64,000 nucleotides of DNA from an uncultured Acidimicrobiia bacterium. Its GTDB lineage: Bacteria; Actinomycetota; Acidimicrobiia; IMCC26256; JAENVU01. The notes under the pieces are model-generated. The model was given only the letters and a program-made list of their open reading frames with translations, was not told where the DNA came from and did not search any database. This document shows, in pieces, positions 1,265 to 13,007 of this stretch (its first letter is position 1; the number at the start of each line of letters is the position of its first letter). A program made the translations under genes and the position numbers. The DNA lies in contig CAWIEA010000009.1 of assembly GCA_963835005.1 (NCBI GenBank), forward strand, positions 444,435-508,434, read 5' to 3'.

Positions 1265-2077
1265 TCAGTTCTCCCGCGCCCGCAGCGCCCGGGCCTCGGC
1301 CGCGACCGTCGCGGCTTCGGGTTCGTCGAGACCGTCCGCGAGCGCCTCGAGCGCCGCCGCGGCTTCGCGGAATCGGCCGAGCGAGCCGAGCACTCCTGCG
1401 GTCCGCCGCCGTTCCGCGACCGACAGCTCCTGAAACCGGAGCCTCAGCCGCGCGACCCACGCGGCGTCCCCGGCGTTGCGCTCGAGGTAGGACTGCTGCA
1501 GGTTGTTCAGCACACGCAGCAGGATCGCCCGGGTGCCCGTCGCCGCGAGGTACCGCGGTGAGAACGGCGCCTCGGGACCCTGCAGGGTGGCGAACACCTC
1601 GCGACAGCCTTCGACGTCGAGCACGCGACCCTGGTGGAAGGGATCGACGAACGCCCCCGGGTCTCCGTCCACTCCCACGACGAAGTGACCGGGCATGCCG
1701 ACGCCGTGCAGCGCGACGCCGGTGCGCCGGCCGACCTCGATCATCAGGACGCTGAGCGTGATCGGGATGCCGAGGCGGCGGTCGATGACGTCGTCGAGCA
1801 GCGAGTTGCGCGGATCCGAGTAGTCGGACGTGTTCCCCGAGAACGCCTCGTCGGTGAACAGGCGAGTGCCCAGCGTCCCCGCGTCACGTGCGTCGACGCA
1901 ACGCTCTGCGAGCTCGTCCAGCCGGAGCAGCCAGCCGTCGACGTCGAGACCGGGATGCGCGTGCGCAGCCACGAGGAAGGCACCCTCGTCGAGCGGCAGG
2001 TCGTCCTCCGGGAGTCCGAGCAGCGCGGTGAACCGATCGGTCGCGTCGCTCCAGGCCGCATCGGACGGGCGCGCCAC
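1265..2077 (-). CDS. SirB1/UPF0162-type transglutaminase-like plus TPR protein
   Basis: 270-aa ORF. It has a transglutaminase-like core (GIPITLSVLMIEVGRRTG, GMPGHFVV) followed by helical TPR-like repeats. Confidence 0.7.
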   Translation of the reverse strand: MARPSDAAWSDATDRFTALLGLPEDDLPLDEGAFLVAAHAHPGLDVDGWLLRLDELAERCVDARDAGTLGTRLFTDEAFSGNTSDYSDPRNSLLDDVIDRRLGIPITLSVLMIEVGRRTGVALHGVGMPGHFVVGVDGDPGAFVDPFHQGRVLDVEGCREVFATLQGPEAPFSPRYLAATGTRAILLRVLNNLQQSYLERNAGDAAWVARLRLRFQELSVAERRRTAGVLGSLGRFREAAAALEALADGLDEPEAATVAAEARALRAREN

Positions 2078-2086
2078 GGCGCCGGC

Positions 2087-2860
2087 TCAGGCGTTCGCGG
2101 CGTCGGAGACGGCCTGCTGGAAGGCCTGCGGGTCGGCGAGCTGCTCGGCGGACATCTGCGTGGTGTTCCCATTCGGGCCGGTGATGAACAGCGTCGGCGT
2201 GGAATTCACACCCCGCTTCGACGCGTTCTCCGCCGACTTTCGCACGAAGCCCTCGTACCGGTTGCTGCGCACGCACTCCTCGAACCGGTCGAACGCCTTG
2301 CCGGTGATCCCGGCCTGGCGGCCGAAGTCCACGAGGCGGTCGGTGGTGAGGAAGCCGGAGTTCTCCGAGGCCTGGTTCGTGTACAGCAGGTCCTGGTACG
2401 GGAAGAACTTGTCCTCGTCGCCGGCGCACACCGCGGCCGCGGCGGCGCGCACCGACTCCTCACCGATGAACGGGAAGTACGTGTACGCGTAGCGGATCTT
2501 CCCCTGCTGCACGAGGTCGTCGACCGTCGAGCCGAAGATGTCGTGGAAGCGCTTGCACGACGGGCACTGGAGGTCGGCGTACTCCTGGACGAGCACGGGG
2601 GCGGACGACTCGCCCTCGATCTCGGAGTCGTTCGGGCCCAGCTGGTGCTTCGGTACGACCACGGGGCTGTTCTCCGTCTTCGATCGGGATGCCTGCACGA
2701 CGATGCCCACCACGAGCGCGATGACAACCACGCCGATCACGATCCACCACTGCATCGCGATCCCGAAGGGCCCCGCCTTCGCGGCCGGGCGCTTCGCCGG
2801 TCCCTTCTTCGGGCCGGGCGACGACGGTCGCTTCGCGGGTCGCTTGCTGCCGGACGCCAT
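2087..2860 (-). CDS. DsbA-family thioredoxin-domain protein, membrane anchored
   Basis: Start chosen at MASGSK. It has a Lys/Pro-rich tail, one TM helix and a thioredoxin fold with a CPSC active site (ADLQCPSCKRF). The ATG overlaps the stop of the MauE/DoxX gene (TGATG). Confidence 0.85.
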   Translation of the reverse strand: MASGSKRPAKRPSSPGPKKGPAKRPAAKAGPFGIAMQWWIVIGVVVIALVVGIVVQASRSKTENSPVVVPKHQLGPNDSEIEGESSAPVLVQEYADLQCPSCKRFHDIFGSTVDDLVQQGKIRYAYTYFPFIGEESVRAAAAAVCAGDEDKFFPYQDLLYTNQASENSGFLTTDRLVDFGRQAGITGKAFDRFEECVRSNRYEGFVRKSAENASKRGVNSTPTLFITGPNGNTTQMSAEQLADPQAFQQAVSDAANA

Positions 2861-3318
2861 CAGGTGCTCATCCTCTCGTCCAGGGAGAGCGCCGAGCGCG
2901 GACCGATCGCGATGAACACCGACAAGCCCAGCAGCACGACGTCCCGCACGATCTCCTCTGCGTACTTGGCGGCGTCGAGGCGGTTCGTGACGCCACCGCC
3001 GCCGAAGCATCCGCAATCGATCGCCAGCCCGCGTGCCCAGGCCGAGCCGATCATCACGATGAACGCGACGAACAGTACCGCCGACACCCAGGCCGCCGGT
3101 CGCGTGGCCAACCCCACCAGGAGCAGGACGGCGAGCGCGAGCTCGACGAACGGGAGGCCCCACGCGATCGGCTTGATCAGTGCCTCGGGGAAGAGCTCAT
3201 AGGCACGGACCGCCCGGGTCGCCGCATCCGGGTCCGAGATCTTCGCGAGCCCGGCCCACGTCCATACGACGGCGAGCGCGAGCCGGGCTGCAAAGGAGAT
3301 CCACCGCCACGCCCTCAC
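2860..3318 (-). CDS. MauE/DoxX family redox-associated membrane protein
   Basis: 152 aa with four hydrophobic helices and a CGCFGG motif typical of the family. It is coupled to the DsbA-like gene. Confidence 0.8.
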   Translation of the reverse strand: MRAWRWISFAARLALAVVWTWAGLAKISDPDAATRAVRAYELFPEALIKPIAWGLPFVELALAVLLLVGLATRPAAWVSAVLFVAFIVMIGSAWARGLAIDCGCFGGGGVTNRLDAAKYAEEIVRDVVLLGLSVFIAIGPRSALSLDERMST

Positions 3319-3334
3319 AGTGTGGCGTCGTTCG

Positions 3335-4006
3335 TCACGCGGTCGGCGTCTTCGAGCGCCGGGCGCGCATCACGAGGAAGACGATGACTCCGAGGACGAC
3401 GATCACACCGATGACGATGGCGATGATCACGCCCGTCGACGAGCTGTCGTCGTGGGATCCGCTGTCGGAGTGCGCCGTCGTCGTGGCCGTGGACGCCGCG
3501 TCGTCTTCGTGCGGGGCATCGCCCTTGACGTAGAGCACGGGGGCCGGGTGCTCCGGCTCCTCGCCGCCCGCGGGCGTGGGCTCGATCCAACGCACGACCG
3601 TGGCGTCGTCGTAGGTCTGGAGCGCCTTGAACTCGACGGTCCGCGTGTCGCCCGGGAAGTCGCCCATCGTGACGGGGAACTCGACCTCGTCGTCACCGAC
3701 GATCGTCCCGCCCGTCCAGGTGATCGACTCGACGTCGCCTGCAGCGTCCTTCTTCACCGCCGCGGTGAAGCCGTTCGCGTCCTCGGCCGTCGCGTCGGTC
3801 AGCTTCGGCGACGCCGGGAAGACGAGCTCGATGCTCGTCGTCTTCGCGGTCTTCGACTCGTTCGGAACCGAGAGCGACGCGTTCACGACGCCCTGCGCGG
3901 TGACCTCCCCCTCGCGCGCGATCTCGACGTGAGCGAACGCCGCCCCTGCCCACAGCATGACCACCCCGGTCACGATGACGCCCACCACTGTCAGCTTGCG
4001 GATCAT
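3335..4006 (-). CDS. ycnI: YcnI family (DUF1775) copper-binding protein
   Basis: Signal peptide ...AGAAFA/HVEI leaves an N-terminal His. The body is YcnI-like, followed by a Ser/Thr/Asp-rich linker and a C-terminal TM anchor. Confidence 0.85.
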   Translation of the reverse strand: MIRKLTVVGVIVTGVVMLWAGAAFAHVEIAREGEVTAQGVVNASLSVPNESKTAKTTSIELVFPASPKLTDATAEDANGFTAAVKKDAAGDVESITWTGGTIVGDDEVEFPVTMGDFPGDTRTVEFKALQTYDDATVVRWIEPTPAGGEEPEHPAPVLYVKGDAPHEDDAASTATTTAHSDSGSHDDSSSTGVIIAIVIGVIVVLGVIVFLVMRARRSKTPTA

Positions 4007-4045
4007 GATGCTCCTGTCTCTCGGTTGTGCTCAGGAACTGTGTGC

Positions 4046-5953
4046 TCAGGAACTGAAGGACACCGTCGTCGTGGCCGCCGACTCGTCGACGTCGCCGAGC
4101 ACGGCCTTCACCGTGAGCTTCCAGTCACCCGCGAACGGGACCGTCAAGCCGGCCGACGTGTAGTGCCCGGGCGCGAGCCGGATCAGCTTCACCTCGATCG
4201 GGGCGATGTCGTTGTCCGGCTGGCTCATCTCGGCGGAGACCTCGGTCGCGTCGACGGTGGTGCCGGTGCCGGTCGGATCCAGCGTGAAGAGGTGCATCTC
4301 GTTCGCACCCCGTGTCGCGGGCGTGATGGTGATGTCGAACGAGACCTTCTCCGTCTTCAAGGTGGCGGTGTACGGCCCGGAGTCCTGGCCGCGAGCCGGA
4401 GCGGCGTTCACGAGCAGCGCGGTGACCGCGAGGATGATCACGCCGAGGATGACCTCGAAGAGGAGCCCGCGACGCAGGCGGCGCTCGGCGGTCGGCTCGT
4501 CGAGCACGTAGCCCTCGGGATATCCCTCGTCCTCGTCGTCGGGAGAGAGCGGGAGACCGCCCCCGCCGGGCGCGACGGGCGGGAGCGTCGCCGTCCCGCC
4601 ACCGCCACCGCCGCTGCCGCCGCCGGACATGGCCGCGGCACCGGCGCCCACCACCGCGCCCGCACCCACGGAGACGGGGGTGTCGAGCTCGTCCTCGGGA
4701 ATCCGCCAGCGCCGGTTCACGACGTCGCGGCTCACCGCGGCTGCGACCATCAAGAAGAGGAAGAAGCCCAGCTTCACGAGCAGGATCCGCCCGTAATCGG
4801 TGTCGACCAGCGCGCCGAAGCTGTCGATCTGGCGGAACGCCTGGAACGTGCCGGTCACCACGATCACACCCATCGACACGAGCGCGTACGCGGAGTACCT
4901 GGGCACGACGTCGCGCAGCGACGGCTCGTCGGCCCTCGGCATGAAGGCGGAGAAGAGCATCACCAGGCCGCCGAGCCAGAGGCCGACGCCGTAGATGTGC
5001 AGCGTGTCGGCCGGGATCGCGATCGACACGAGCGGACCGGTCGACGCGTGGCCGGCCAGCCCGGGAGTCGCGCTGAGCGCGAGCCCGAGCACGCCCGCGG
5101 CCCACGGCCACCACGACGGCAGCGGGTGCTCGATCTCGGGGCCGCGGCTCGGGAGGAGCCGGAGCAGCAACGGCAACGCGAGCAGCAGGAGCACCACGCG
5201 GGCGATGAGGACCCGCCCGTAGCGGGTCGAGAGGACCTGGGACCAGAGGCTCGGGTCGACCACCTTCTCCAGTCCGAGCGCCGCCCCGTAGGGGCCCTCG
5301 AGCGCGAAGGCGAGGAGGGTGAAGCCGACGGTGCAGCCCCACGCCGTCCACACCAGGCGGCGGGCCCGGCGATCGGACCGGCCGCGCCTCCACACCCAGG
5401 CGAGGAACGCGCCGCCGCCGATGAGTCCGGCGAGGCCGAGGAACGCCCCGAAGCGAGCGATGGCGAACACGATGCCGACGATCGAGCTGCCGCCCTGGTC
5501 GGTCAGCAGGCGGTTGGCCAGGCCCTGCGCCTGCTTCGACGTGGTGTTCGAGGAGCCGACGGTGAAGGTGTACGCACCCTGGATCGGGTGCGAGTCCGCG
5601 GAGATCACCCGCCAGGTGACGACGTAGAGGCCGTCGTCCAGCTTCGGGACGGAGACTGCGACCTCGCTGGCCTTGCCGTTCGGATGGTGGGCTTCGCCGA
5701 CATCGACCCGGTCGGCGCGGGAGTCGAACATCCGGACGGCACCGAGCGACGCCTCGACCGGCTCGCTGTACGAGAGCCTGATCTGGGCCGGCGAGCGCCG
5801 CACGGTCGCGCCGGCCCCGGGATCGGTGCCCTCGAGAGTGGCGTGGGCGAACGCAGGGACCGCAGTCAGCCCGATGACGGCGAACACGAGCGCACAGAAG
5901 ACCAGCAGACGACGCACCGTTCGACCCCCCGTCGTTCCCCCCATGGGGGTCAT
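4046..5953 (-). CDS. CopC-CopD fusion copper resistance/uptake protein (YcnJ-like architecture)
   Basis: Signal peptide ...VPAFA/HATLEGTDP precedes the CopC domain. This is followed by a multi-TM CopD domain, a Gly-rich insert (GGGSGGGGGG) and a C-terminal beta domain. My start choice is 5953 (MTPMGG), which forms an ATGA overlap with the anti-sigma stop. The maximal ORF starts at 6013. Confidence 0.85.
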   Translation of the reverse strand: MTPMGGTTGGRTVRRLLVFCALVFAVIGLTAVPAFAHATLEGTDPGAGATVRRSPAQIRLSYSEPVEASLGAVRMFDSRADRVDVGEAHHPNGKASEVAVSVPKLDDGLYVVTWRVISADSHPIQGAYTFTVGSSNTTSKQAQGLANRLLTDQGGSSIVGIVFAIARFGAFLGLAGLIGGGAFLAWVWRRGRSDRRARRLVWTAWGCTVGFTLLAFALEGPYGAALGLEKVVDPSLWSQVLSTRYGRVLIARVVLLLLALPLLLRLLPSRGPEIEHPLPSWWPWAAGVLGLALSATPGLAGHASTGPLVSIAIPADTLHIYGVGLWLGGLVMLFSAFMPRADEPSLRDVVPRYSAYALVSMGVIVVTGTFQAFRQIDSFGALVDTDYGRILLVKLGFFLFLMVAAAVSRDVVNRRWRIPEDELDTPVSVGAGAVVGAGAAAMSGGGSGGGGGGTATLPPVAPGGGGLPLSPDDEDEGYPEGYVLDEPTAERRLRRGLLFEVILGVIILAVTALLVNAAPARGQDSGPYTATLKTEKVSFDITITPATRGANEMHLFTLDPTGTGTTVDATEVSAEMSQPDNDIAPIEVKLIRLAPGHYTSAGLTVPFAGDWKLTVKAVLGDVDESAATTTVSFSS

Positions 5954-6612
5954 CCCAGCACGGGACGATGGCGAGAGGGTGCCACCGGAGATTCGGTCCG
6001 GGCGAGGAGCCACACCGCCACGAGGCCGACGAGCTCGGTGGCGTGGCTCACCTCACCGCTCGGAGCCGCCCGACCCTGGGCGATGTCGAGCACGGAGCTG
6101 GCGACCAGGCAGATGACCACCGCCGCCACCACCGGCAACATCCCGGCCGCCCGCTCCGGCTTCCAGGCCACGAACAGGAGGCCGATGCCCAACGCCACCG
6201 CGAACGACCCGAGATGCCGGGCCACGTGGGTCGGGAGCCCGGCGTCGTCGCCGAGGATCAGGGCGGGGACCGCCATCGTCAGCTGGATCACGGCCACGAT
6301 CGCGAGCGCGAGGCGCAGGAAGTCGGTGCGGTCGTCGCGTGTCACCACCGCGGGTTCGTCGCCGATCGACCGCAGGATCGCGTCGGTGAGGTCGGGGACG
6401 GGCGTGGCCGGCGTGATCCGGGCCGTCCGGTGCAGGGCGGTGGCGTCGGTCGAGAAGGACCGGCACTCGGCGCAGCCGTCGAGGTGCGTCCGCACCACCT
6501 CCTCGGGGAGCCCGGGGTCCTCCCCGTCGAGGGAGGCGGAGATCGCGTCACGGCATCGCTCGCAGTCCATGGAGGGGTAGTCGTCCGTCGGGCCCGTCTG
6601 GTTCCCGGTCAC
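5950..6612 (-). CDS. zf-HC2 anti-sigma factor, membrane spanning
   Basis: MDCERCRDAISASLDGE...HLDGCAECRSF is the zinc-finger anti-sigma N-domain. It is followed by several TM helices. The start is GTG 6612 or ATG 6570. Confidence 0.8.
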   Translation of the reverse strand: MTGNQTGPTDDYPSMDCERCRDAISASLDGEDPGLPEEVVRTHLDGCAECRSFSTDATALHRTARITPATPVPDLTDAILRSIGDEPAVVTRDDRTDFLRLALAIVAVIQLTMAVPALILGDDAGLPTHVARHLGSFAVALGIGLLFVAWKPERAAGMLPVVAAVVICLVASSVLDIAQGRAAPSGEVSHATELVGLVAVWLLARTESPVAPSRHRPVLG

Positions 6613-6630
6613 GCGTCACGATCGCGAGCC

Positions 6631-7204
6631 GTGTCCCGACCGGCGGTCGCCGGGGACCGGCCGGTAACGTCGGCCACCGTGGACGAGCTCACGCGGCTCC
6701 TGCTCGCGGGGCGAGACGGCGACCGCGGTGCGTTGACCGCCGCGATCCGCCGGGCCCAGCCCGACGTCTGGCGGCTGGCCGCGCATCTCGTGGGCCGGTC
6801 CGACGCCGACGACGTCACCCAGGACGTGTTCCTCCGTGCCCACCGCTCCCTGCCGCGGTTCCGGGCCGAGGCGAGCGCCCGTACCTGGCTCCTCACCATC
6901 ACCCGGTGCGCCTGCGCGGACTTCGTGCGCAGCGCGAAGCGACGGCGACGGCTGCACGAGCGCCTCACGACGCAACCCGACGCGACGACCGAGTCCGCGG
7001 CCGACGGCGTGATCGGCATCGACGACCTCGTCGACACGCTCGACAGCGACCGCCGGGCCGCGTTCGTCCTGACGCAGGTGCTCGGCTGCTCGTACGCGGA
7101 GGCAGCCGAGATCTGCGAGACGGCGATCGGCACCATCCGGTCGCACGTCGCGCGCGGCACGCGCGGATCTGCTCGACCAGCTGCGCGCCGCCGACACCGC
7201 GTGA
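6631..7204 (+). pseudogene. ECF-type RNA polymerase sigma-70 factor, frame broken near 7155
   Basis: Region 2 (DVTQDVFLRAHRSLPRF) and region 4 (SYAEAAEICETAIGTIRS) are both present. The natural tail ARADLLDQLRAADTA-stop (TGA 7202-7204) lies in another frame. The start is GTG 6631 or GTG 6679. Confidence 0.8.
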
Positions 7205-8273
7205 CGAGCAACCTGCGGCGCGCGCCCTGGCCGGGGCGGCGATCGTCGTGGGGCTCCTCGTCGTCACCGCCACCCCCGCATCTGCGCACGGCGTCGGTGG
7301 GCTGCAGCCCACGAATTACGTGACGACCGTCGACGGCATCCGCCCCCCGCTTCCGGGCGTCCGGGTGCAGGCGATCGACCTCGGGACGAAGATCGAGCTC
7401 CGCAACCACAGCCGCCGCGTCGTCACCGTGATCGGCTACCAGGGCGAGCCCTACCTGCGGGTCGGGCCGCGCGGCGTCTGGCAGAACGACCGCTCGCCCG
7501 CGGTCTTCCTCAACCGGAGCCAGATCCCGACCCAGGAGGCGCCGGGCGACGAGTACGACGCGAAGGCGAAGCCCCACTGGGTGAAGATCTCCGACACTCC
7601 GGTCGCGACTTGGCACGACCACCGCACGCACCTGATGACGAGCGAGGATCCGCAGTCGGTGCAGCGCGATCCCGGCCGCCGCCGCGTCGTGATCGCGAGC
7701 TGGAGGATCCCACTGCGCGACGAGGCGCGGCGATACGCCGTCGTCGGCGACGCGACGTACATCCCGCCGCCTTCGCCGTGGCCCTGGATCATCGGCGCGG
7801 TGATGCTCGTCGCCGGCACCGTGGTCCTGTGCCGGACCAGGCGTTGGTCGGCGGTCATGCAGGTGGCGCTCGACGATCCTCGTGGTGAGCGAGACGATCC
7901 ACGTCGTCGGCGCCTGGCAGGCGTCGACCGCATCGATCGGCAGCCGCCTGCTCGCGAGCATCTACTCCATCGGCGGGATCGCGGTGTGCGTGCTCGCACT
8001 GTGGTGGCTGCGGCACCGTGACGCGTGGGCCGCGCGCCTGCGGTCCTGGTCGCGGGACTCTTCGTCTTCGTCGCCGGCGGCCTGGCCGACTTCACCACGC
8101 TCACGCGGTCGCAGGTCCCGACCACCCTGCCGGACGTGATCGCGAGGCTCACGGTGACGATCGCACTCGGCCTCGGCCTCGGTCTGGTGATCGCCGCCGG
8201 CATGCGGCTGCGCGCTCCGCCGCCGCCCCGGCGGACCCAGGCCGCGGCACCGGTCCGCACCCTCGTCCCCTGA
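7201..8273 (+). pseudogene. Uncharacterised secreted/membrane protein with predicted N-terminal His; frame broken about 3 times
   Basis: Best reconstruction starts at GTG 7201, which forms a GTGA overlap with the sigma stop. It reads VTSNLRRA, shifts frame, then continues LAGAAIVVGLLVVTATPASA/HGVGG. A His-rich soluble domain follows (HWVKISDTPVATWHDHRTH). TM helices are then split over ORFs 7882..8139 and 8025..8273. The frame changes are near 7224, 7869 and 8035. Confidence 0.55.
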
Positions 8274-8290
8274 CGCGCCAGGCTGGGGGC

Positions 8291-8715
8291 ATGCCGACCA
8301 TCTTCACCCGCATCATCGAGGGCGATCTCCCCGGCACGTTCGTCTGGCGCGACGACGTCTGCGTGGCGTTCATGTCGATCGCGCCGATCCACCCGGGGCA
8401 CACGCTCGTGGTCCCCCGGGCGGAGGTCGACCACTGGATCGACCTCGAGCCGGACGTCAACGCCCACCTGATGCGCGTCGCCCAGGAGATCGCCGCGCGC
8501 AGCAGGCCGCGTTCGAGCCGGTGCGCATCGGGCTGATCATCGCCGGCCTCGAAGTGCCCCACACGCACGTGCACGTGATCCCGATCGACGGGATGGAGGA
8601 CCTGGACTTCGGCCGGGCCGATGCCGCCACGCCGGCGGACGCGATCGACGACACGGCGGCGCGGTTACGGGTGGCGTTGCGCGACCGGGACGCCACGGGC
8701 GTCCCGGACGAGTGA
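8291..8715 (+). pseudogene. HIT family (histidine triad) protein, frame broken near 8497
   Basis: The gene opens with MPTIFTRIIEGDLPGTFVW. The triad HTHVHVIP is in the second ORF, 8521..8715. Confidence 0.85.
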
Positions 8716-8729
8716 CGGGCGGGGGATCG

Positions 8730-9503
8730 ATGCGACTCGCCGGCGAGCGCGCGCTCGTCACCGGATCGACGTCCGGCATCGGCCGCACGATCGCGACGCG
8801 CTTCGCGGCCGAGGGTGCGGCAGTCGTCGTGCACGGTCGCAACCAGGAGCGCGGCGACGCCGTCGTGCAGGAGATCCGCCACGCCGGTGGCGAGGCGATG
8901 TTCGTGGCCGCGGACCTCTCCGACGAGACCGCCTGCACTGACCTGGTCGGTGCCGCCGCGCTCGCGCTCGGCGGGCTCTCGGTGCTGGTGAACAACGCGG
9001 TCGCGAGCACGGTGGACGAGACCGACGGTCCGGTCGGCGACCTCTCGACCCCGGCGTGGGAGACGAGCCTCCGGGTGAACCTCACCGCGCCGATGTGGCT
9101 GTGTCGAGCGGCGATCCCGCACCTCGTCGCGACCGGTCACGGAACGATCGTGAACGTCTCGAGCCGTGCGGCGGAGCGGTCGTCGCCGGGGCTGACCGCG
9201 TACGCGGCATCGAAGTCGGGGCTCAACGGGCTCACCCGCACGATCGCGGTCGACTATGCGGCCGCCGGCATCCGCTGCAACACGATCAGCCCCGGCTACG
9301 TCGTCAACGAACGACGCGACGGGTCGATGGACCCAACGACCCGACGGCGCCGCGAGGCGCAGCACCTCACGAGGCTCGGCGCCGCCGACGACGTCGCCTA
9401 CGCGGCCGTCTATCTCGCGAGCCGCGAGAGCGAGTACCTCACCGGGATCAACCTCGCGCTCGACGGCGGGAGCAGCGCCGCCCGCGGCGCGGTGCTGGGA
9501 TGA
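8730..9503 (+). CDS. SDR family oxidoreductase
   Basis: It has the TGSTSGIGR, NNAV and YAASK motifs. ATG 8730, with a GGGGGA Shine-Dalgarno, is preferred over GTG 8712. Confidence 0.85.
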   Translation: MRLAGERALVTGSTSGIGRTIATRFAAEGAAVVVHGRNQERGDAVVQEIRHAGGEAMFVAADLSDETACTDLVGAAALALGGLSVLVNNAVASTVDETDGPVGDLSTPAWETSLRVNLTAPMWLCRAAIPHLVATGHGTIVNVSSRAAERSSPGLTAYAASKSGLNGLTRTIAVDYAAAGIRCNTISPGYVVNERRDGSMDPTTRRRREAQHLTRLGAADDVAYAAVYLASRESEYLTGINLALDGGSSAARGAVLG

Positions 9504-10324
9504 ACGGAGCCGGAGCGGATCGGCCGCGTGTGTCGGTCAGCGCGATCTGCACGTACGACTGGTCGCTCGAGCAGGACCTCGCCTTCTACGCCGAGCACGA
9601 CATCGGGGCCGTCGGTGTCTCGCTGGCGAAGCTCGAGCGGCACGGGGTCGAGAACGGTGCCGCACACGTCCGCGACGCCGGGCTGGAGGTCACGAACCTC
9701 ATCGGGCTGGGGCCGTTCCACCTCGCCGCGCCCGAGCAGTGGGACGCGCAGCGCGCCAGGCTGCTCCGCGCGCTCGAAGCCGGCGCGACGGTCGGCGCCG
9801 AGTGCATGGTGTTGACCACGGGTCCGGCCGGAACGCTGAGCTGGGAGGACGCCGCCGACCGCCTCGCCGACGCGCTCGCGCCGGTGCTCGACGGTTCCCG
9901 CGCGGCAGGCATCCCGATCGCGTTGGAGCACACGAACTCGCTGCGTGTCGATGTCGGGTTCGTCCACACGCTGCATGACGCGATCGACCTCGCACGCCGG
10001 CTCGACATCGGCGTGTGCATGGAGATCAACGCGTGCTGGGCCGAGCGCGGCCTCGGTGCGACGATCGCCGGCGGCATCGACCGGATCCGGCTCGTGCAGG
10101 TCAGCGACTACGCGATCGGGACGCTCAGCACTCCGGCCCGGCTCGTGCCGGGCGACGGTGACATCCCGATCGAGCGCATCCTCGGCCAGGTGCGGGACGC
10201 GGGCTACCGGGGCTGCCTCGACCTCGAGCTCATCGGGCCGGCGATCGAGGCCGAGGGCTACGAGTGCGCGGTCCCGCGGGCGCTGGCGGCGGTCGAGGCG
10301 CTGCTCGACCCGCCGGTCAGCTGA
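9500..10324 (+). CDS. Sugar phosphate isomerase/epimerase (xylose-isomerase-like TIM barrel)
   Basis: ATGA overlap with the SDR stop. The 274-aa sequence is TIM-barrel-like (IALEHTN, LDLELIGP). Confidence 0.7.
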   Translation: MNGAGADRPRVSVSAICTYDWSLEQDLAFYAEHDIGAVGVSLAKLERHGVENGAAHVRDAGLEVTNLIGLGPFHLAAPEQWDAQRARLLRALEAGATVGAECMVLTTGPAGTLSWEDAADRLADALAPVLDGSRAAGIPIALEHTNSLRVDVGFVHTLHDAIDLARRLDIGVCMEINACWAERGLGATIAGGIDRIRLVQVSDYAIGTLSTPARLVPGDGDIPIERILGQVRDAGYRGCLDLELIGPAIEAEGYECAVPRALAAVEALLDPPVS

Positions 10325-12494
10325 TCGTCCTGGATGAGCCCGTAGGTCCCGAAGCACATCTCGTCCTCCGTGCCCTCGGCGAAGATGATGTACTTCGGCG
10401 GTCGGTTCGGCTCGCGGCTCCGATCCCAGCTGCACTCCATCCGCAGCGTCTCGCCCACGGTCACGTGGACCGGCTTCGCCAACCCGTAATTCATCTGCCA
10501 GTCGAAGTTCCAGTTCGGGATGTCGAGCAGCACCTTGGAGCTCGGGGTGTCGGGATCCAGCGTGTAGCGGAACGACTGGCCCAGCGTGTGCATGTGCCCG
10601 AGCACACCGACGATCAGACCGTCCGCGGGAACGCGGTAGTCGCAGCTCGTGTGCGCGACACCGTTGCTGTAGCGCGCGGCAAGCGCCTCCTTGGTCTGCC
10701 CGCACAGCCCGAGTAGGCCGGACTCCGTGGCGGCGCCGAACGGTCCGTACTGGCGCGCGGCGTCTCGGACGGCGGCGTCACGGTCGCAGAGCGGCGCCGT
10801 CTGGCCCGGTTCGCACGGGATCTCGACCGGTGCGATCGGGTTGACGATGTCGAGGTGCTTGACCGGCGCGGTCCCGGGGTCGAGCTGGAGCGCCACCGTG
10901 GTCCGGTCGGGCACCGGGGTGAAGTTGTAGTGGTAGTGCACCTGCAGCACGAGCGCGTCGCCGGGCTGCAGCAGGATCCCCGACTGCAGCGGGAAGATCA
11001 CCGGGTCCTGACCGGGGACCCAGCCGGCGACGAGACCGGCCTGACCGTTGAAGCCGTGCAGCCGCGGCCGCCGCGCCGTCTTGTCGCGCGCGAGCTCGGC
11101 AGGGTCGGACCCGAGTAGCAGCTCCACCCCGGCTTGCCGTCCTTGCCGGCGATCGCCTTGCTCGCCTCCACCTGCGACGAGTCGATCTGGAAGATCTGCG
11201 CGTGGTGGATCTCGGCCCGGTTGCCCGGCGTCACCTCGTAGCCGGTCATGAACGTGGGCTTCGTGATGTGCGGGTCGAGCACGAAGCAGCGGTAGTCGTT
11301 CGGGACGCTCAGCGAGCCCGTGTACCCCTGCGGCATCTTCATCGTGACGTCGTGACGCGGGCCCGCGCCCTCGGGGCCCCGCCGCGTCTCCAGCGGCGTC
11401 GAACGGTCCTCGTCGAGCGGCCCACCTGCCCGCGACCAGGCGAGGATCGCGTTCATCGACTTGTCGTCGAGACGCTTCGAGTCCGCGAGCGGCACCCCGA
11501 CGTCCGAGGCCGGCCACGGCGGCATGTACCGCCCCCGGACGACGGTGCCGATGCCGTCGGCGATGTCCTGCGCGTCGCCGGCGTTCTTCACCGTCCAGTG
11601 CGAGGCGCCGACCTGGCCGGCTTCGTGGCACGAGACGCAGTGGGTCTCGAGGATCGGCTGGACGACCTTGCTGAACGAAGGGCTGTCGTCGCTGCGCGGC
11701 GCCGAAGCAGGCGCCTTGATCGCGGTCGGAACCGCGAAGCGGGCGGGATCGACCGCGGTGAGGTTCATCGTGAGGGCAACGTCGTCCGACGTGCTCACGA
11801 GCCCGGCGGTCGAGATCGGCCCGATCCCGAAGGTCGACATCTTCACGTCCGCCTTTGCGGAAGCGTGCAGCTTGCCGTCGCGCAGTGACGCGGTCACGTC
11901 CCACACCACGGCTGCGGGCGTGTCGCGCACCGTCAGCTGGCTCGGCATCTTGAAGTGGTAGTCGCGGCCCGGCTCGATCTGTGCGGGCATGCCGCTCAGA
12001 TCGCCGGCCGTCAGGTACGCGAGCGGGTGGTCGTGCGAATCGAGGTTGCCCTGGCGCAGCTGCGCGTCCCGCAGGTTGTTGTCCGAGTGGAGCTGCTCGA
12101 CGTTGACGACGATCTCACCGACCCGGCTCTTCGGCGGGTTGGTCGCGTTGATCGCGAGGTCGCCGGAGATCCCGTTCGTGGAGCCGATCGCGCGGTTGGC
12201 GTCCTGGCCGAACAGCTTCTCGTCCACCGCGTAGGTGAGGCGCGACGCGGTGGGGTCGATGCGGTACACGGTCTCGCCGGACTCCGCGACGAGCGGGCTC
12301 GACCTCGGCACGGTGTAGTCGACGACCTGGTACTCGGCCGACGTGAGCGTCCGGTACCGGCGCCACGTGTAGTAGCCGGCGCCGGCCACCACCACGAGGA
12401 CGGCGGCCATCGTCCACCACAGCCACCGCAGCCGACGGCGACGCGAAGGTTGCTCGACGGGTGCAACTTCTTCGGGCGTGACCGACGACGTCAT
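10258..12494 (-). pseudogene. Membrane-anchored YceI-like + c-type haem (CXXCH) + PHM/DBH-like copper monooxygenase fusion, frame broken near 11112
   Basis: The start MTSSV at 12494 is followed by a TM helix and a YceI-like domain. HCVSCHE lies at 11625-11639. Copper monooxygenase motifs follow: IHHAQIF, LQVHYHY, GHMHTLG and EMCFGT. The two halves are in ORFs 10998..12956 and 10258..11904. Confidence 0.7.
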
Positions 12495-12599
12495 CGCGAC
12501 CCAACCTCTCGCGGCACCATCCGGTCCCCCCGGTCGCCATCGGAACTGCCTCAGGCTATCGACACCCATGCGCCGGGGACCAGCCATAGGCTCCTGCCG

Positions 12600-13007
12600 A
12601 TGCTGCGTGATCGCCGCCTGCTGAGTCCGATCGCCGCGCTCGTCGTGATCGCGGGGCTGCTCACCGCCTGCGGCGGAGCATCGGACGGACGGCCGACCAC
12701 GCACGCCACCATCCGGTTCGTGAGCCCCGAACCGAACGCGGTGAGCGGCAGCGATGTCACGGTGCGCGTCCACCTGGGGGGCGCCCGGATCGTTCCGTCG
12801 ACCCAGGTCGGAGGGAAGCCGCGCGCGGACCGTGGCCACATCCACGTCTCGCTCGACGGCCAGCTCGTCGCCATGGCGTACGGCGACGACCAGGTCCTGC
12901 CGAACGTCACTCCCGGCCGGCACACCCTGCAGGCCGAGTTCGTCGCCAGCGACCATCTGCCGTTCGCGAACCGGGTCATCGCGGCCGTGACCTTCACCGT
13001 CCGATGA
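12600..13007 (+). CDS. Putative lipoprotein (possibly DUF4399-like)
   Basis: It has a LLTAC lipobox and is about 135 aa. The segment DRGHIHVSLDG...GRHTLQAEF is present. The family assignment is low confidence. Confidence 0.55.
   Translation: MLRDRRLLSPIAALVVIAGLLTACGGASDGRPTTHATIRFVSPEPNAVSGSDVTVRVHLGGARIVPSTQVGGKPRADRGHIHVSLDGQLVAMAYGDDQVLPNVTPGRHTLQAEFVASDHLPFANRVIAAVTFTVR

Follow-up and report, generated by a model that had tools for sequence, protein, structure and literature searches.

The window analysed here, a stretch of 64,000 nucleotides (nt) with a G+C content of ~72%, belongs to contig CAWIEA010000009.1 of an uncultured Acidimicrobiia bacterium (assembly GCA_963835005.1), and its closest relatives are Acidimicrobiia metagenome-assembled genomes (MAGs). 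Between positions 2087 and 8273 it carries a cluster of copper-handling genes, in which a minus-strand operon for an anti-sigma factor, a CopC-CopD fusion, YcnI, a MauE/DoxX protein and a DsbA-like protein faces a plus-strand pair encoding a sigma factor of the extracytoplasmic function (ECF) type and a hitherto unnamed membrane protein, termed P7 in the following. With a probability of roughly 0.6, we read this cluster as a copper-acquisition regulon of a SigC-type (ECF36-like) sigma factor, in which P7 would be a new copper-binding membrane component. The minus-strand operon is in itself an ordinary YcnJ/YcnI-type copper system. What is not ordinary in the cluster is the SigC-like sigma factor with a membrane anti-sigma factor encoded head-to-head, the promoter code of this sigma factor on copper-capture genes, and P7.

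In the proposed circuit, the sigma factor and P7 would be co-transcribed from a conserved promoter of a type other than sigma-C, probably on a leaderless mRNA. The sigma factor would be sequestered by the divergently encoded ZAS anti-sigma factor with its four transmembrane (TM) helices and, once released, would fire a GGGAAC-N17-CGACTA promoter immediately next to the start codon of the anti-sigma gene. This sigma-C-type promoter would drive the genes for the anti-sigma factor, the YcnJ-like CopC-CopD-YtkA importer, the Cu(II) chaperone YcnI and the MauE/DoxX plus DsbA-like pair, and the placement of the anti-sigma factor under a sigma-dependent promoter would result in negative feedback. The module as a whole would control the extracytoplasmic capture and import of copper. 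The locus would thus tie a SigC-like sigma factor to a cognate membrane anti-sigma factor, offering a concrete model for the missing SigC copper sensor, and would tie the same sigma factor to copper-capture genes through the promoter code known for sigma-C of Corynebacterium glutamicum.

The arrangement recurs in other genomes. Loci with relatives of P7 (denoted by L numbers, and homologous proteins by P numbers) were collected by a pattern scan of species-representative genomes, which yielded at least 556 loci. The best 80 were fetched, and the 62 in which the upstream flank measured 3.5 kb or more served for the counts of gene arrangement; the neighbourhood for cop genes was set at 10 kb. 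The full arrangement of the window, with the CopC-CopD (CopCD) and anti-sigma genes divergent from those of the sigma factor and P7, was present in 26 of the 62 loci. In 13 loci the CopCD gene was directly divergent from P7, without the regulators, 5 loci carried the sigma gene only, and 16 showed none of the CopCD or regulator arrangements. The CopCD gene was divergent in 40 of the 62 loci, and the sigma gene was located directly upstream of P7 in 39 of 75. Across these categories, CopCD and/or YcnI genes were found within 10 kb of P7 in 46 of 62 loci; the co-occurrence of P7 with cop genes is therefore strong. Two of the observations that the first-pass annotation had named as refuting it, a missing N-terminal His in the orthologues of P7 and a missing co-occurrence with cop genes, did not materialise. 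In some loci, the YcnI gene follows P7. The cluster goes beyond chance, since the N-terminal His of P7 is found in 79 of 80 loci, the sigma-C-type promoter is expected only 0.02 times per window, and the same gene order is seen in dozens of genomes.

The sigma factor, its anti-sigma partner and the intergenic promoters

The sigma gene (6679..7204, plus strand) encodes a SigC-like ECF sigma factor of 174 amino acids (aa), after removal of one base near 7150-7158; the domain assignments for this protein and for P7 were made on frameshift-corrected sequences, as detailed in the last section. The corrected protein contains regions 2 and 4 (Pfam Sigma70_r2, 7.5e-17; Sigma70_r4_2, 2.6e-14) and no region 3. 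Among the NCBIfam models, it scored 152.9 bits with PRK12535 (curated cutoff 290), 124.5 bits (E 4e-36) with the SigC model PRK09649 (curated cutoff 219) and 93.8 bits with the next model, SigM. The best domain matches in the PDB were both to SigC of Mycobacterium tuberculosis: the sigma-2 domain 2O7G (72.9 bits over 89 residues, ~48% identity) and the sigma-4 domain 2O8X (47.1 bits over 58 residues), while whole ECF sigma factors, such as RpoE, reached ~55 bits. By sequence similarity, the window sigma factor is thus closest to M. tuberculosis SigC and is ECF36-like, at a score below the curated cutoff, an affiliation that had not been recognised in the first-pass annotation. SigC is the type member of group ECF36, and the ECF classification paper implies anti-sigma factors for the ECF36 subgroups other than s4, such that the pairing of sigma and anti-sigma factors in ECF36 may already have been catalogued.

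The affiliation bears directly on copper. SigC prevents copper starvation in M. tuberculosis and is needed for virulence (PMC7924339), and the sigma-C regulon of C. glutamicum is activated by copper deprivation (PMC7337898). The window system resembles the known SigC systems in that its sigma factor is best matched by SigC, in both the NCBIfam and the 2O7G/2O8X comparisons, and SigC has a functional link to copper starvation. In contrast, the sigC gene of M. tuberculosis is monocistronic and has no known anti-sigma factor, and the sensing of copper deficiency by SigC was stated to be an open question (PMC7924339), whereas the window encodes a ZAS anti-sigma factor head-to-head with the sigma gene.

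This anti-sigma factor (5950..6570, minus strand) is a membrane protein of 206 aa with a zf-HC2 domain (Pfam, 4.7e-8) and four TM helices. Its reading frame is open from a GTG at 6612, but the start is better placed at the ATG at 6570, because the homologues align from that Met and a conserved promoter occupies 6578-6606. From this ATG to the sigma GTG at 6679 there are 108 nt, in agreement with the head-to-head arrangement and the maximum of about 110 nt originally described. The two genes are adjacent but divergent in 27 of the 62 related loci, or 27 of the 32 that carry the sigma gene. In an alignment of 30 homologues drawn from the related loci, the zinc motif (C3 plus H29-x3-C33-x2-C36) is conserved. 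Assuming a cytoplasmic N-terminal domain, the conserved residues D109, H115, R118 and H119 would be located in the first outer loop and D162, E173 and H176 in the second, and these outer-loop His, Asp and Glu residues would constitute the simplest candidate sensor. In three loci (L068, L073 and L074), an anti-sigma-like gene is found downstream of P7 on the same strand, and in two of these (L068 and L074) a separate GGGAAC-N17-CGACTA promoter lies ahead of it.

The promoter assigned to the anti-sigma/copCD operon (6578..6606, minus strand) consists of a -35 element, GGGAAC (6601-6606), a spacer of 17 nt and a -10 element, CGACTA (6578-6583), and ends 7 nt upstream of the anti-sigma ATG. It exactly matches the consensus of C. 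glutamicum sigma-C (-35 GGGAACT, -10 CGACTA; PMC5483222) and is the only match to GGGAAC-N17-CGACTA in the 64 kb, versus 0.02 expected. Among 32 related loci compared, the strict pattern was present at the same position (-36 to -8 relative to the anti-sigma ATG) in 23, and near-matching sequences were present in most of the others. The sigma factor of the window would accordingly be expected to act on this promoter. For a relaxed form of the motif (GGAAC-N16-18-CGAC), the window held 9 matches versus 4.9 expected, which is no clear enrichment and hence no clear sign of a wider regulon.

On the sigma side, the conserved element is of a different kind. A -10-like sequence, TAACGTCG (6665..6672, plus strand; family consensus GTAnCGTCG), ends 6 nt before the sigma GTG, and the TANNNT hexamer within it (6665-6670) ends 8 nt before the same codon. 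The element is located at the same distance from the sigma start in 23 of the 32 loci, and is retained before P7 where the sigma gene has been lost. No sigma-C-type -35 sequence was found at a workable spacing on this side, where GGGGAC (6652-6657) lies only 10 nt from CGTC. The self-similar pair of promoters that had been suggested as worth seeking between 6570 and 6680 is thus absent, and the sigma-C-type promoter is confined to the anti-sigma side. Since the start codons of the two genes are only 50-57 nt apart in many relatives, both transcripts are probably leaderless.

Variants of these elements were observed in individual loci. A plus-strand motif of sigma-C type is located 36 nt upstream of P7 itself in L073. 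In four others (L038, L048, L058 and L061), a conserved GAATACC/GAATTCC box precedes the sigma -10 element by ~30 nt; it occurs only in this subgroup, in which the intergenic regions are long, and could be a -35 element or the operator of another regulator. Further searches were uninformative: no RNA family was found with Rfam in 1500-9000, scans for terminators and sigma-70 promoters gave nothing useful, and the repeats in the intergenic region were short pairs at chance level.

The minus-strand operon and the direction of the response

All five minus-strand genes are intact open reading frames (ORFs), and their order and identities, as supported by Pfam and NCBIfam, are those originally reported, together with the assignment of the cluster to copper handling. 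Following the anti-sigma gene, the operon encodes a YcnJ-like CopC-CopD-YtkA fusion of 635 aa (4046..5953; Pfam CopC 1.7e-23, CopD 8.4e-17, YtkA 1e-4), in which the YtkA-like C-terminus scored 23.3 bits against a Pfam cutoff of 25.9. The next gene (3335..4006) encodes YcnI (DUF1775, 2.6e-24) of 223 aa with a signal peptide and a C-terminal TM helix at residues ~192-214. It is followed by a MauE/DoxX membrane protein of 152 aa (2860..3318; Pfam MauE 2.5e-32) with a CGC motif, and by a DsbA-like thioredoxin-fold protein of 257 aa (2087..2860; Pfam Thioredoxin_4 1.9e-30, DSBA 1.7e-7) with a CPSC motif and an N-terminal TM anchor. The start of the CopCD fusion overlaps the anti-sigma stop by ATGA (5950-5953), and the start of the DsbA-like gene overlaps the MauE stop by 1 nt (TGATG, at 2860), both as described before.

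The likeness to the ycnKJI operon of Bacillus subtilis extends to details. YcnJ has the same order of domains, CopC, CopD and YtkA, the last of which is weakly matched in the window fusion, YcnI likewise carries an N-terminal His and a C-terminal TM helix, and ycnJ and ycnI are adjacent in one operon. In the window, the predicted cleavage sites AFA/HATLE in CopC and AFA/HVEI in YcnI are present as initially noted, and both mature proteins would begin with His. The best PDB match of the CopC domain was 9C14, the CopC domain of B. subtilis YcnJ, aligned from residue 1, with His1 and D-S-H of the window protein over the His and D-G-H of 9C14. The combination of an N-terminal His and D-x-H ligands with a single Met and no Met-rich motif places this domain in the Cu(II)-only (C0-1) type. 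YcnI was best matched by 3ESM (6.7e-17), where VPNES and VVRW are aligned to VPTES and VVAW, and it keeps the PxE Glu and the Trp positions of the mono-histidine brace. In B. subtilis, the N-terminal His serves both YcnJ and YcnI in binding Cu(II), and the two proteins aid growth at limiting copper, for which the His brace of YcnJ is required (PMC12362106). In contrast to the ycn operon, which is governed by the repressor YcnK, the window encodes an ECF sigma/anti-sigma pair, and it adds a thiol-disulfide pair and P7, both of which are absent from ycnKJI.

Within the thiol-disulfide pair, the MauE/DoxX protein is likely the redox partner of the DsbA-like protein. Among the related loci, the DsbA-like protein is restricted to the closest ones (L001, L002, L003, L009 and L078). 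In L083 (3603-4945), the position downstream of copCD is occupied by a DsbB protein and an AhpC/TSA-type redoxin. Since this pair replaces MauE and DsbA there, a thiol-disulfide pair is a recurrent accessory of the system, though not an orthologous one between loci.

The inducing condition is most likely copper shortage, judging by analogy with M. tuberculosis SigC (PMC7924339) and C. glutamicum sigma-C (PMC7337898) and from the growth support provided by YcnJ and YcnI. The opposite direction, a resistance response in which the anti-sigma factor frees the sigma factor at high copper and CopC, CopD, YcnI and P7 handle the surplus, would agree with the naming of CopC and CopD as resistance proteins, which is how NCBIfam and Pfam describe them. 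The described metal-sensing ECF systems, moreover, mostly answer metal excess, CorE being an example (PMC8999054), and a gene for a cation-efflux (CDF) protein follows or faces P7 in L081 and L083. The components of the window, however, point the other way. The architecture of the fusion is YcnJ-like, and its CopC domain, having one Met and lacking a Met-rich motif, represents the Cu(II)-only type, which sustains growth of B. subtilis when copper is limiting. The SigC relatives respond to copper deprivation. Furthermore, the cluster and its immediate surroundings yielded no CopA-type ATPase, multicopper oxidase or CsoR-type repressor, and the annotated flanking genes (605-2077 and 8291-10324) lack copper-related domains. 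A resistance response is therefore considered unlikely, and acquisition under copper shortage is retained as the preferred reading.

P7, a membrane protein with a predicted N-terminal histidine

P7 (7201..8273, plus strand; 356-357 aa after correction) comprises a signal peptide, a beta-sandwich ectodomain and five TM helices. The mature protein is predicted to begin with His, as proposed at the outset for the sequence ASA/HGVGG: the cleavage context AxA/H was found in 79 of the 80 loci and in every full-length member among 120 homologues, and the single exception among the loci looks frameshifted. The codon of this residue (7287-7289) corresponds to H30 of the precursor. In an alignment of 108-109 homologues, H30, W138, H139, H141, H144 and H234 are invariant, and E231, D297, Q305 and R316 are nearly so. 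The segment W138-H139-D140-H141-R142-T143-H144 (codons at 7611..7631, plus strand) is a candidate for the second part of a metal site. To judge from the positive-inside pattern, the conserved Glu, His and Asp residues of the membrane domain would be situated near the outer face.

By sequence similarity, P7 is a member of a large unannotated actinobacterial family. More than 484 homologous proteins were collected, in addition to the loci mentioned above, and a profile search of 1.84 billion representatives retrieved 3,066 clusters (50% identity) at E <= 1e-3 and 995 at E <= 1e-30. No Pfam match was obtained even at E up to 10, with the membrane half and two distant homologues included, nor was there any match in NCBIfam, and the comparison of the P7 profile with PDB sequences yielded only noise (E > 1). 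Structure models were computed with AlphaFold2 (AF2) for a full-length homologue 79% identical to P7 (P0001; pLDDT 91.9, pTM 0.84) and for the ectodomain of the window protein, using the in-frame stretch 7287-7787 (pLDDT 90.2). The models consist of a beta-sandwich (~residues 36-187) followed by five TM helices. In Foldseek searches, neither the full-length model nor the ectodomain had a match at E <= 0.001. Matches to Cys-loop receptors (TM-score ~0.2) were dismissed as reflecting only the outline of a beta domain plus four helices. The fold is thus confidently predicted and matches no solved structure, which makes it a target for metalloprotein biochemistry, and P7 would add an unannotated family of at least 3,000 clusters to the proteins with an N-terminal His, namely lytic polysaccharide monooxygenases (LPMOs), CopC, YcnI, PmoB and the anglerases.

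The family includes long forms of 478-555 aa (P0162, P0168, P0263 and P0135) with a C-terminal extension of ~150 aa, which comprises an additional TM helix and a helical domain with a Cys residue on either side. In P0135, the extension contains a second AxA-H site and an Ig-like domain. In Pfam searches with the long forms of ~500 aa, the extensions remained unmatched and revealed no informative fusion partner.

Several known protein types resemble P7 in part. The fusions of anglerases Ang-1 and Ang-2 to HupE/UreJ-2 are likewise single chains in which a signal peptide is followed by a beta-sandwich with an N-terminal His and by a polytopic membrane domain; Ang-2 is restricted to Actinomycetota, and anglerases bind Cu(II) by a mono-histidine brace (PMC12537917). 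P7, in contrast, has five helices rather than eight, lacks the HupE/UreJ-2 domain (PF13795, Pfam E up to 10), carries a WHDHxxH motif that is not described for Ang domains, and occurs in a context of copCD, ycnI and sigma genes. A similar motif is found in the CuB site of PmoB/AmoB, where, as in P7, the mature protein starts with HG and a W-H-x-H motif follows ~105-110 residues on.

The latter resemblance raises the question of an enzyme, i.e., a membrane-bound copper or other metal protein with a histidine brace like that of PmoB/AmoB CuB or an LPMO, acting on a small molecule or an envelope component. At the level of motifs, WHDH follows the HG... start of P7 by 109 residues, and WHVH follows the HGE... 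start of PmoB by 104, as checked on PDB chains. The four best Foldseek matches of the ectodomain were PmoB/AmoB chains, and hhalign selected exactly the WHxH stretch. These signals, however, are non-significant. The Foldseek matches had E values of 0.03-0.16, TM-scores of 0.21-0.25 and root-mean-square deviations of 15-17 Å, and the hhalign alignment had a probability of 0.1% over 10 columns. The Pfam monooxygenase-B domain was absent even at E up to 10, the membrane domain is of another kind, and the partner subunits PmoA and PmoC are not encoded nearby. The consistent neighbours of P7 are copper carriers, rather than substrates or reductases. Homology of P7 to PmoB is thus unsupported, the aligned part being a mere decapeptide, and an enzymatic role is very unlikely.

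A role as the extracytoplasmic copper sensor of the circuit deserves more weight. In this case, P7 would be made in a fixed ratio with the sigma factor and would signal to the four-TM anti-sigma factor within the membrane. In the CnrYXH system of Cupriavidus metallidurans, a nickel/cobalt-sensing ECF system encoded in one operon, CnrX acts on CnrY in response to metal excess. The window resembles it in that genes for an ECF sigma factor and a membrane anti-sigma factor are accompanied by one for an extracytoplasmic protein anchored in the membrane that binds metal or, in the case of P7, may do so. The proteins themselves, however, are unrelated, and signalling from P7 to the anti-sigma factor is here only a proposal. 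The GTGA overlap of the sigma stop and the P7 start would suit such a partnership, as the same 4-nt overlap is found in L083, and so would the position of the sigma gene immediately ahead of P7, seen in 39 of 75 loci. In the predicted topology, E231, H234, D297 and R316 face outward and the inner half is lined by none of them, as would suit a site better than a pore, and the outer loops of the anti-sigma factor are only short. Nevertheless, P7 stays with CopCD and/or YcnI where no regulators are nearby: in 13 of the 62 loci it is divergent from CopCD, and in L081 (7106-10051) it is divergent from a DUF1775 gene alone, the product of which lacks an N-terminal His. (In that locus, the CDF cation-efflux gene follows P7 with a 4-nt overlap.) L001 and L002 have lost the regulators, yet both P7 and copCD have kept their promoters, and the anti-sigma factor has conserved outer-face His, Asp and Glu residues of its own. 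Sensing by P7 is hence regarded as improbable, though less so than catalysis. The persistence of P7 alongside CopCD and YcnI in loci devoid of the regulators favours a role as a third component in Cu(II) handling over one as a dedicated sensor; P7 would most likely bind Cu(II) via its N-terminal His and work with CopCD and YcnI in the acquisition or delivery of copper. In the literature searched, neither P7 nor a link between a SigC-type sigma factor and copCD was found to be described.

A broader scenario, which we advance tentatively and with the odds against it, would join these observations. SigC-type sigma factors would originally have been direct sensors of copper shortage, with a four-TM ZAS anti-sigma factor reading extracytoplasmic copper via the His, Asp and Glu residues of its outer loops and controlling a relay for Cu(II) capture. 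In Acidimicrobiia, P7 would found a new fold family, with a site of His1 plus HxH resembling PmoB CuB fused to a membrane domain of its own, and mycobacteria and corynebacteria would have kept the sigma factor and the promoter code but lost the sensor.

Frame breaks in the window and the loss of the regulators in relatives

The first-pass annotation treated the sigma factor and P7 as single ORFs, which neither of them is, since it had read through four frameshifts. From the GTG at 6679, the sigma frame reads ...GTIRSHVARG and continues to 7323, with no stop at 7202-7204. The expected C-terminus, ...ARADLLDQLRAADTA*, which ends at the TGA at 7202-7204, sits in another frame. One extra base near 7150-7158 parts the two, and the sigma factor of L003 aligns with the first frame only as far as 7155. 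Similarly, the GTG at 7201 is out of frame with ...PASA/HGVGG, and the HGVGG frame stops at 8019-8021, such that P7 over 7201-8273 needs three single-base corrections, at ~7215-7225, ~7870-7875 and ~8025-8032. The GTGA overlap at 7201-7204 is one of the corrected gene models.

Once corrected, P7 aligns end-to-end with homologues mostly of 343-375 aa, at up to 79% identity; the nearest are 78-79% identical over the whole length, and all 41 invariant positions of the family are retained. The public gene call at this place (P0053) is a truncated fragment of 233 aa, 99.6% identical to window 7320-8018, and the indels are therefore in the deposited record. Comparison with the orthologues in L003, L001 and L002 revealed breaks in unrelated genes as well, at ~806 (a LON-domain gene) and ~8494 (a HIT gene), and others occur at ~18,075, at ~19,290 and within the monooxygenase-like gene at 10258-12956 (~11000-11900), amounting to at least nine in the first 22 kb of the window. 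The four in the sigma and P7 genes are all single-base changes in GC-rich, mostly GCGC, runs. Because the breaks are widespread, fall into such runs and leave every invariant residue in the corrected P7, the four frameshifts are probably assembly errors. Programmed frameshifting was rejected, given four unrelated sites and breaks of the same kind in unrelated neighbouring genes.

The frameshifts might instead be real, in which case the sigma and P7 genes would be decaying pseudogenes and the module would be in the process of being lost, as the sigma and anti-sigma genes already have been in the closest relatives. The density of the indels is in keeping with this, with four in 0.9 kb (7150-8032) compared with about one per 2.5 kb as the window average. 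So is the state of L001 and L002, in which the sigma and anti-sigma genes are missing and the promoters and ~10 sigma codons are left, and the public record carries the same truncated fragment. Against decay stand the breaks in the LON-domain, HIT and monooxygenase-like genes and those of the ~18.1 and ~19.3 kb genes, the uniform single-base character and GC-rich setting of all four sites, and the conservation of the corrected P7, with its high identity to the nearest homologues throughout. Similar anomalies are found, moreover, in L078, a related long-contig MAG. Pseudogenes are thus the minor, rather doubtful option, and the genes are treated here as intact genes in an indel-prone assembly. 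As a caution, frameshifts in long-contig MAG assemblies of this kind hide such genes, and the gene calls of the present assembly are unreliable.

Several of these findings weigh against the reading of the cluster as a SigC-type copper-acquisition regulon with P7 as a component. The score of the sigma factor with the SigC model is below the curated cutoff, and the known SigC regulons, comprising nrp/ctpB and cydABDC, contain neither copCD nor ycnI, the genes found in the window; for this reason, the direction of regulation rests on analogy. In the P7 model, the first five mature residues, beginning with the His itself, have pLDDT values of <50. Among the P7 loci, 16 of 62 show neither cop genes nor regulators within 10 kb. 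The concentration of four frameshifts in 0.9 kb is likewise adverse. Finally, L001 (9716-9950) and L002 (9680-9950), which are among the closest relatives (69-70% identity to P7), have lost the sigma and anti-sigma genes by clean deletions. In both, the sigma-C-type promoter is still located before copCD, and the sigma-side promoter with ~10 sigma codons is still located before P7.

Two further features were observed next to the cluster. A lipoprotein-like ORF at 12300-13007 (plus strand; ...LLTACGG...) contains the sequence GHIHVSLDG and has no Pfam match. The monooxygenase-like gene at 10258-12956 (minus strand) consists of two overlapping, frameshifted ORFs. The protein encoded by the two together combines a haem-c motif (CXXCH) with a YceI domain and the C-terminal domain of copper type II monooxygenases (Pfam Cu2_monoox_C, 4.4e-6), and is a putative copper enzyme, encoded at a distance of 2 kb from the cluster.

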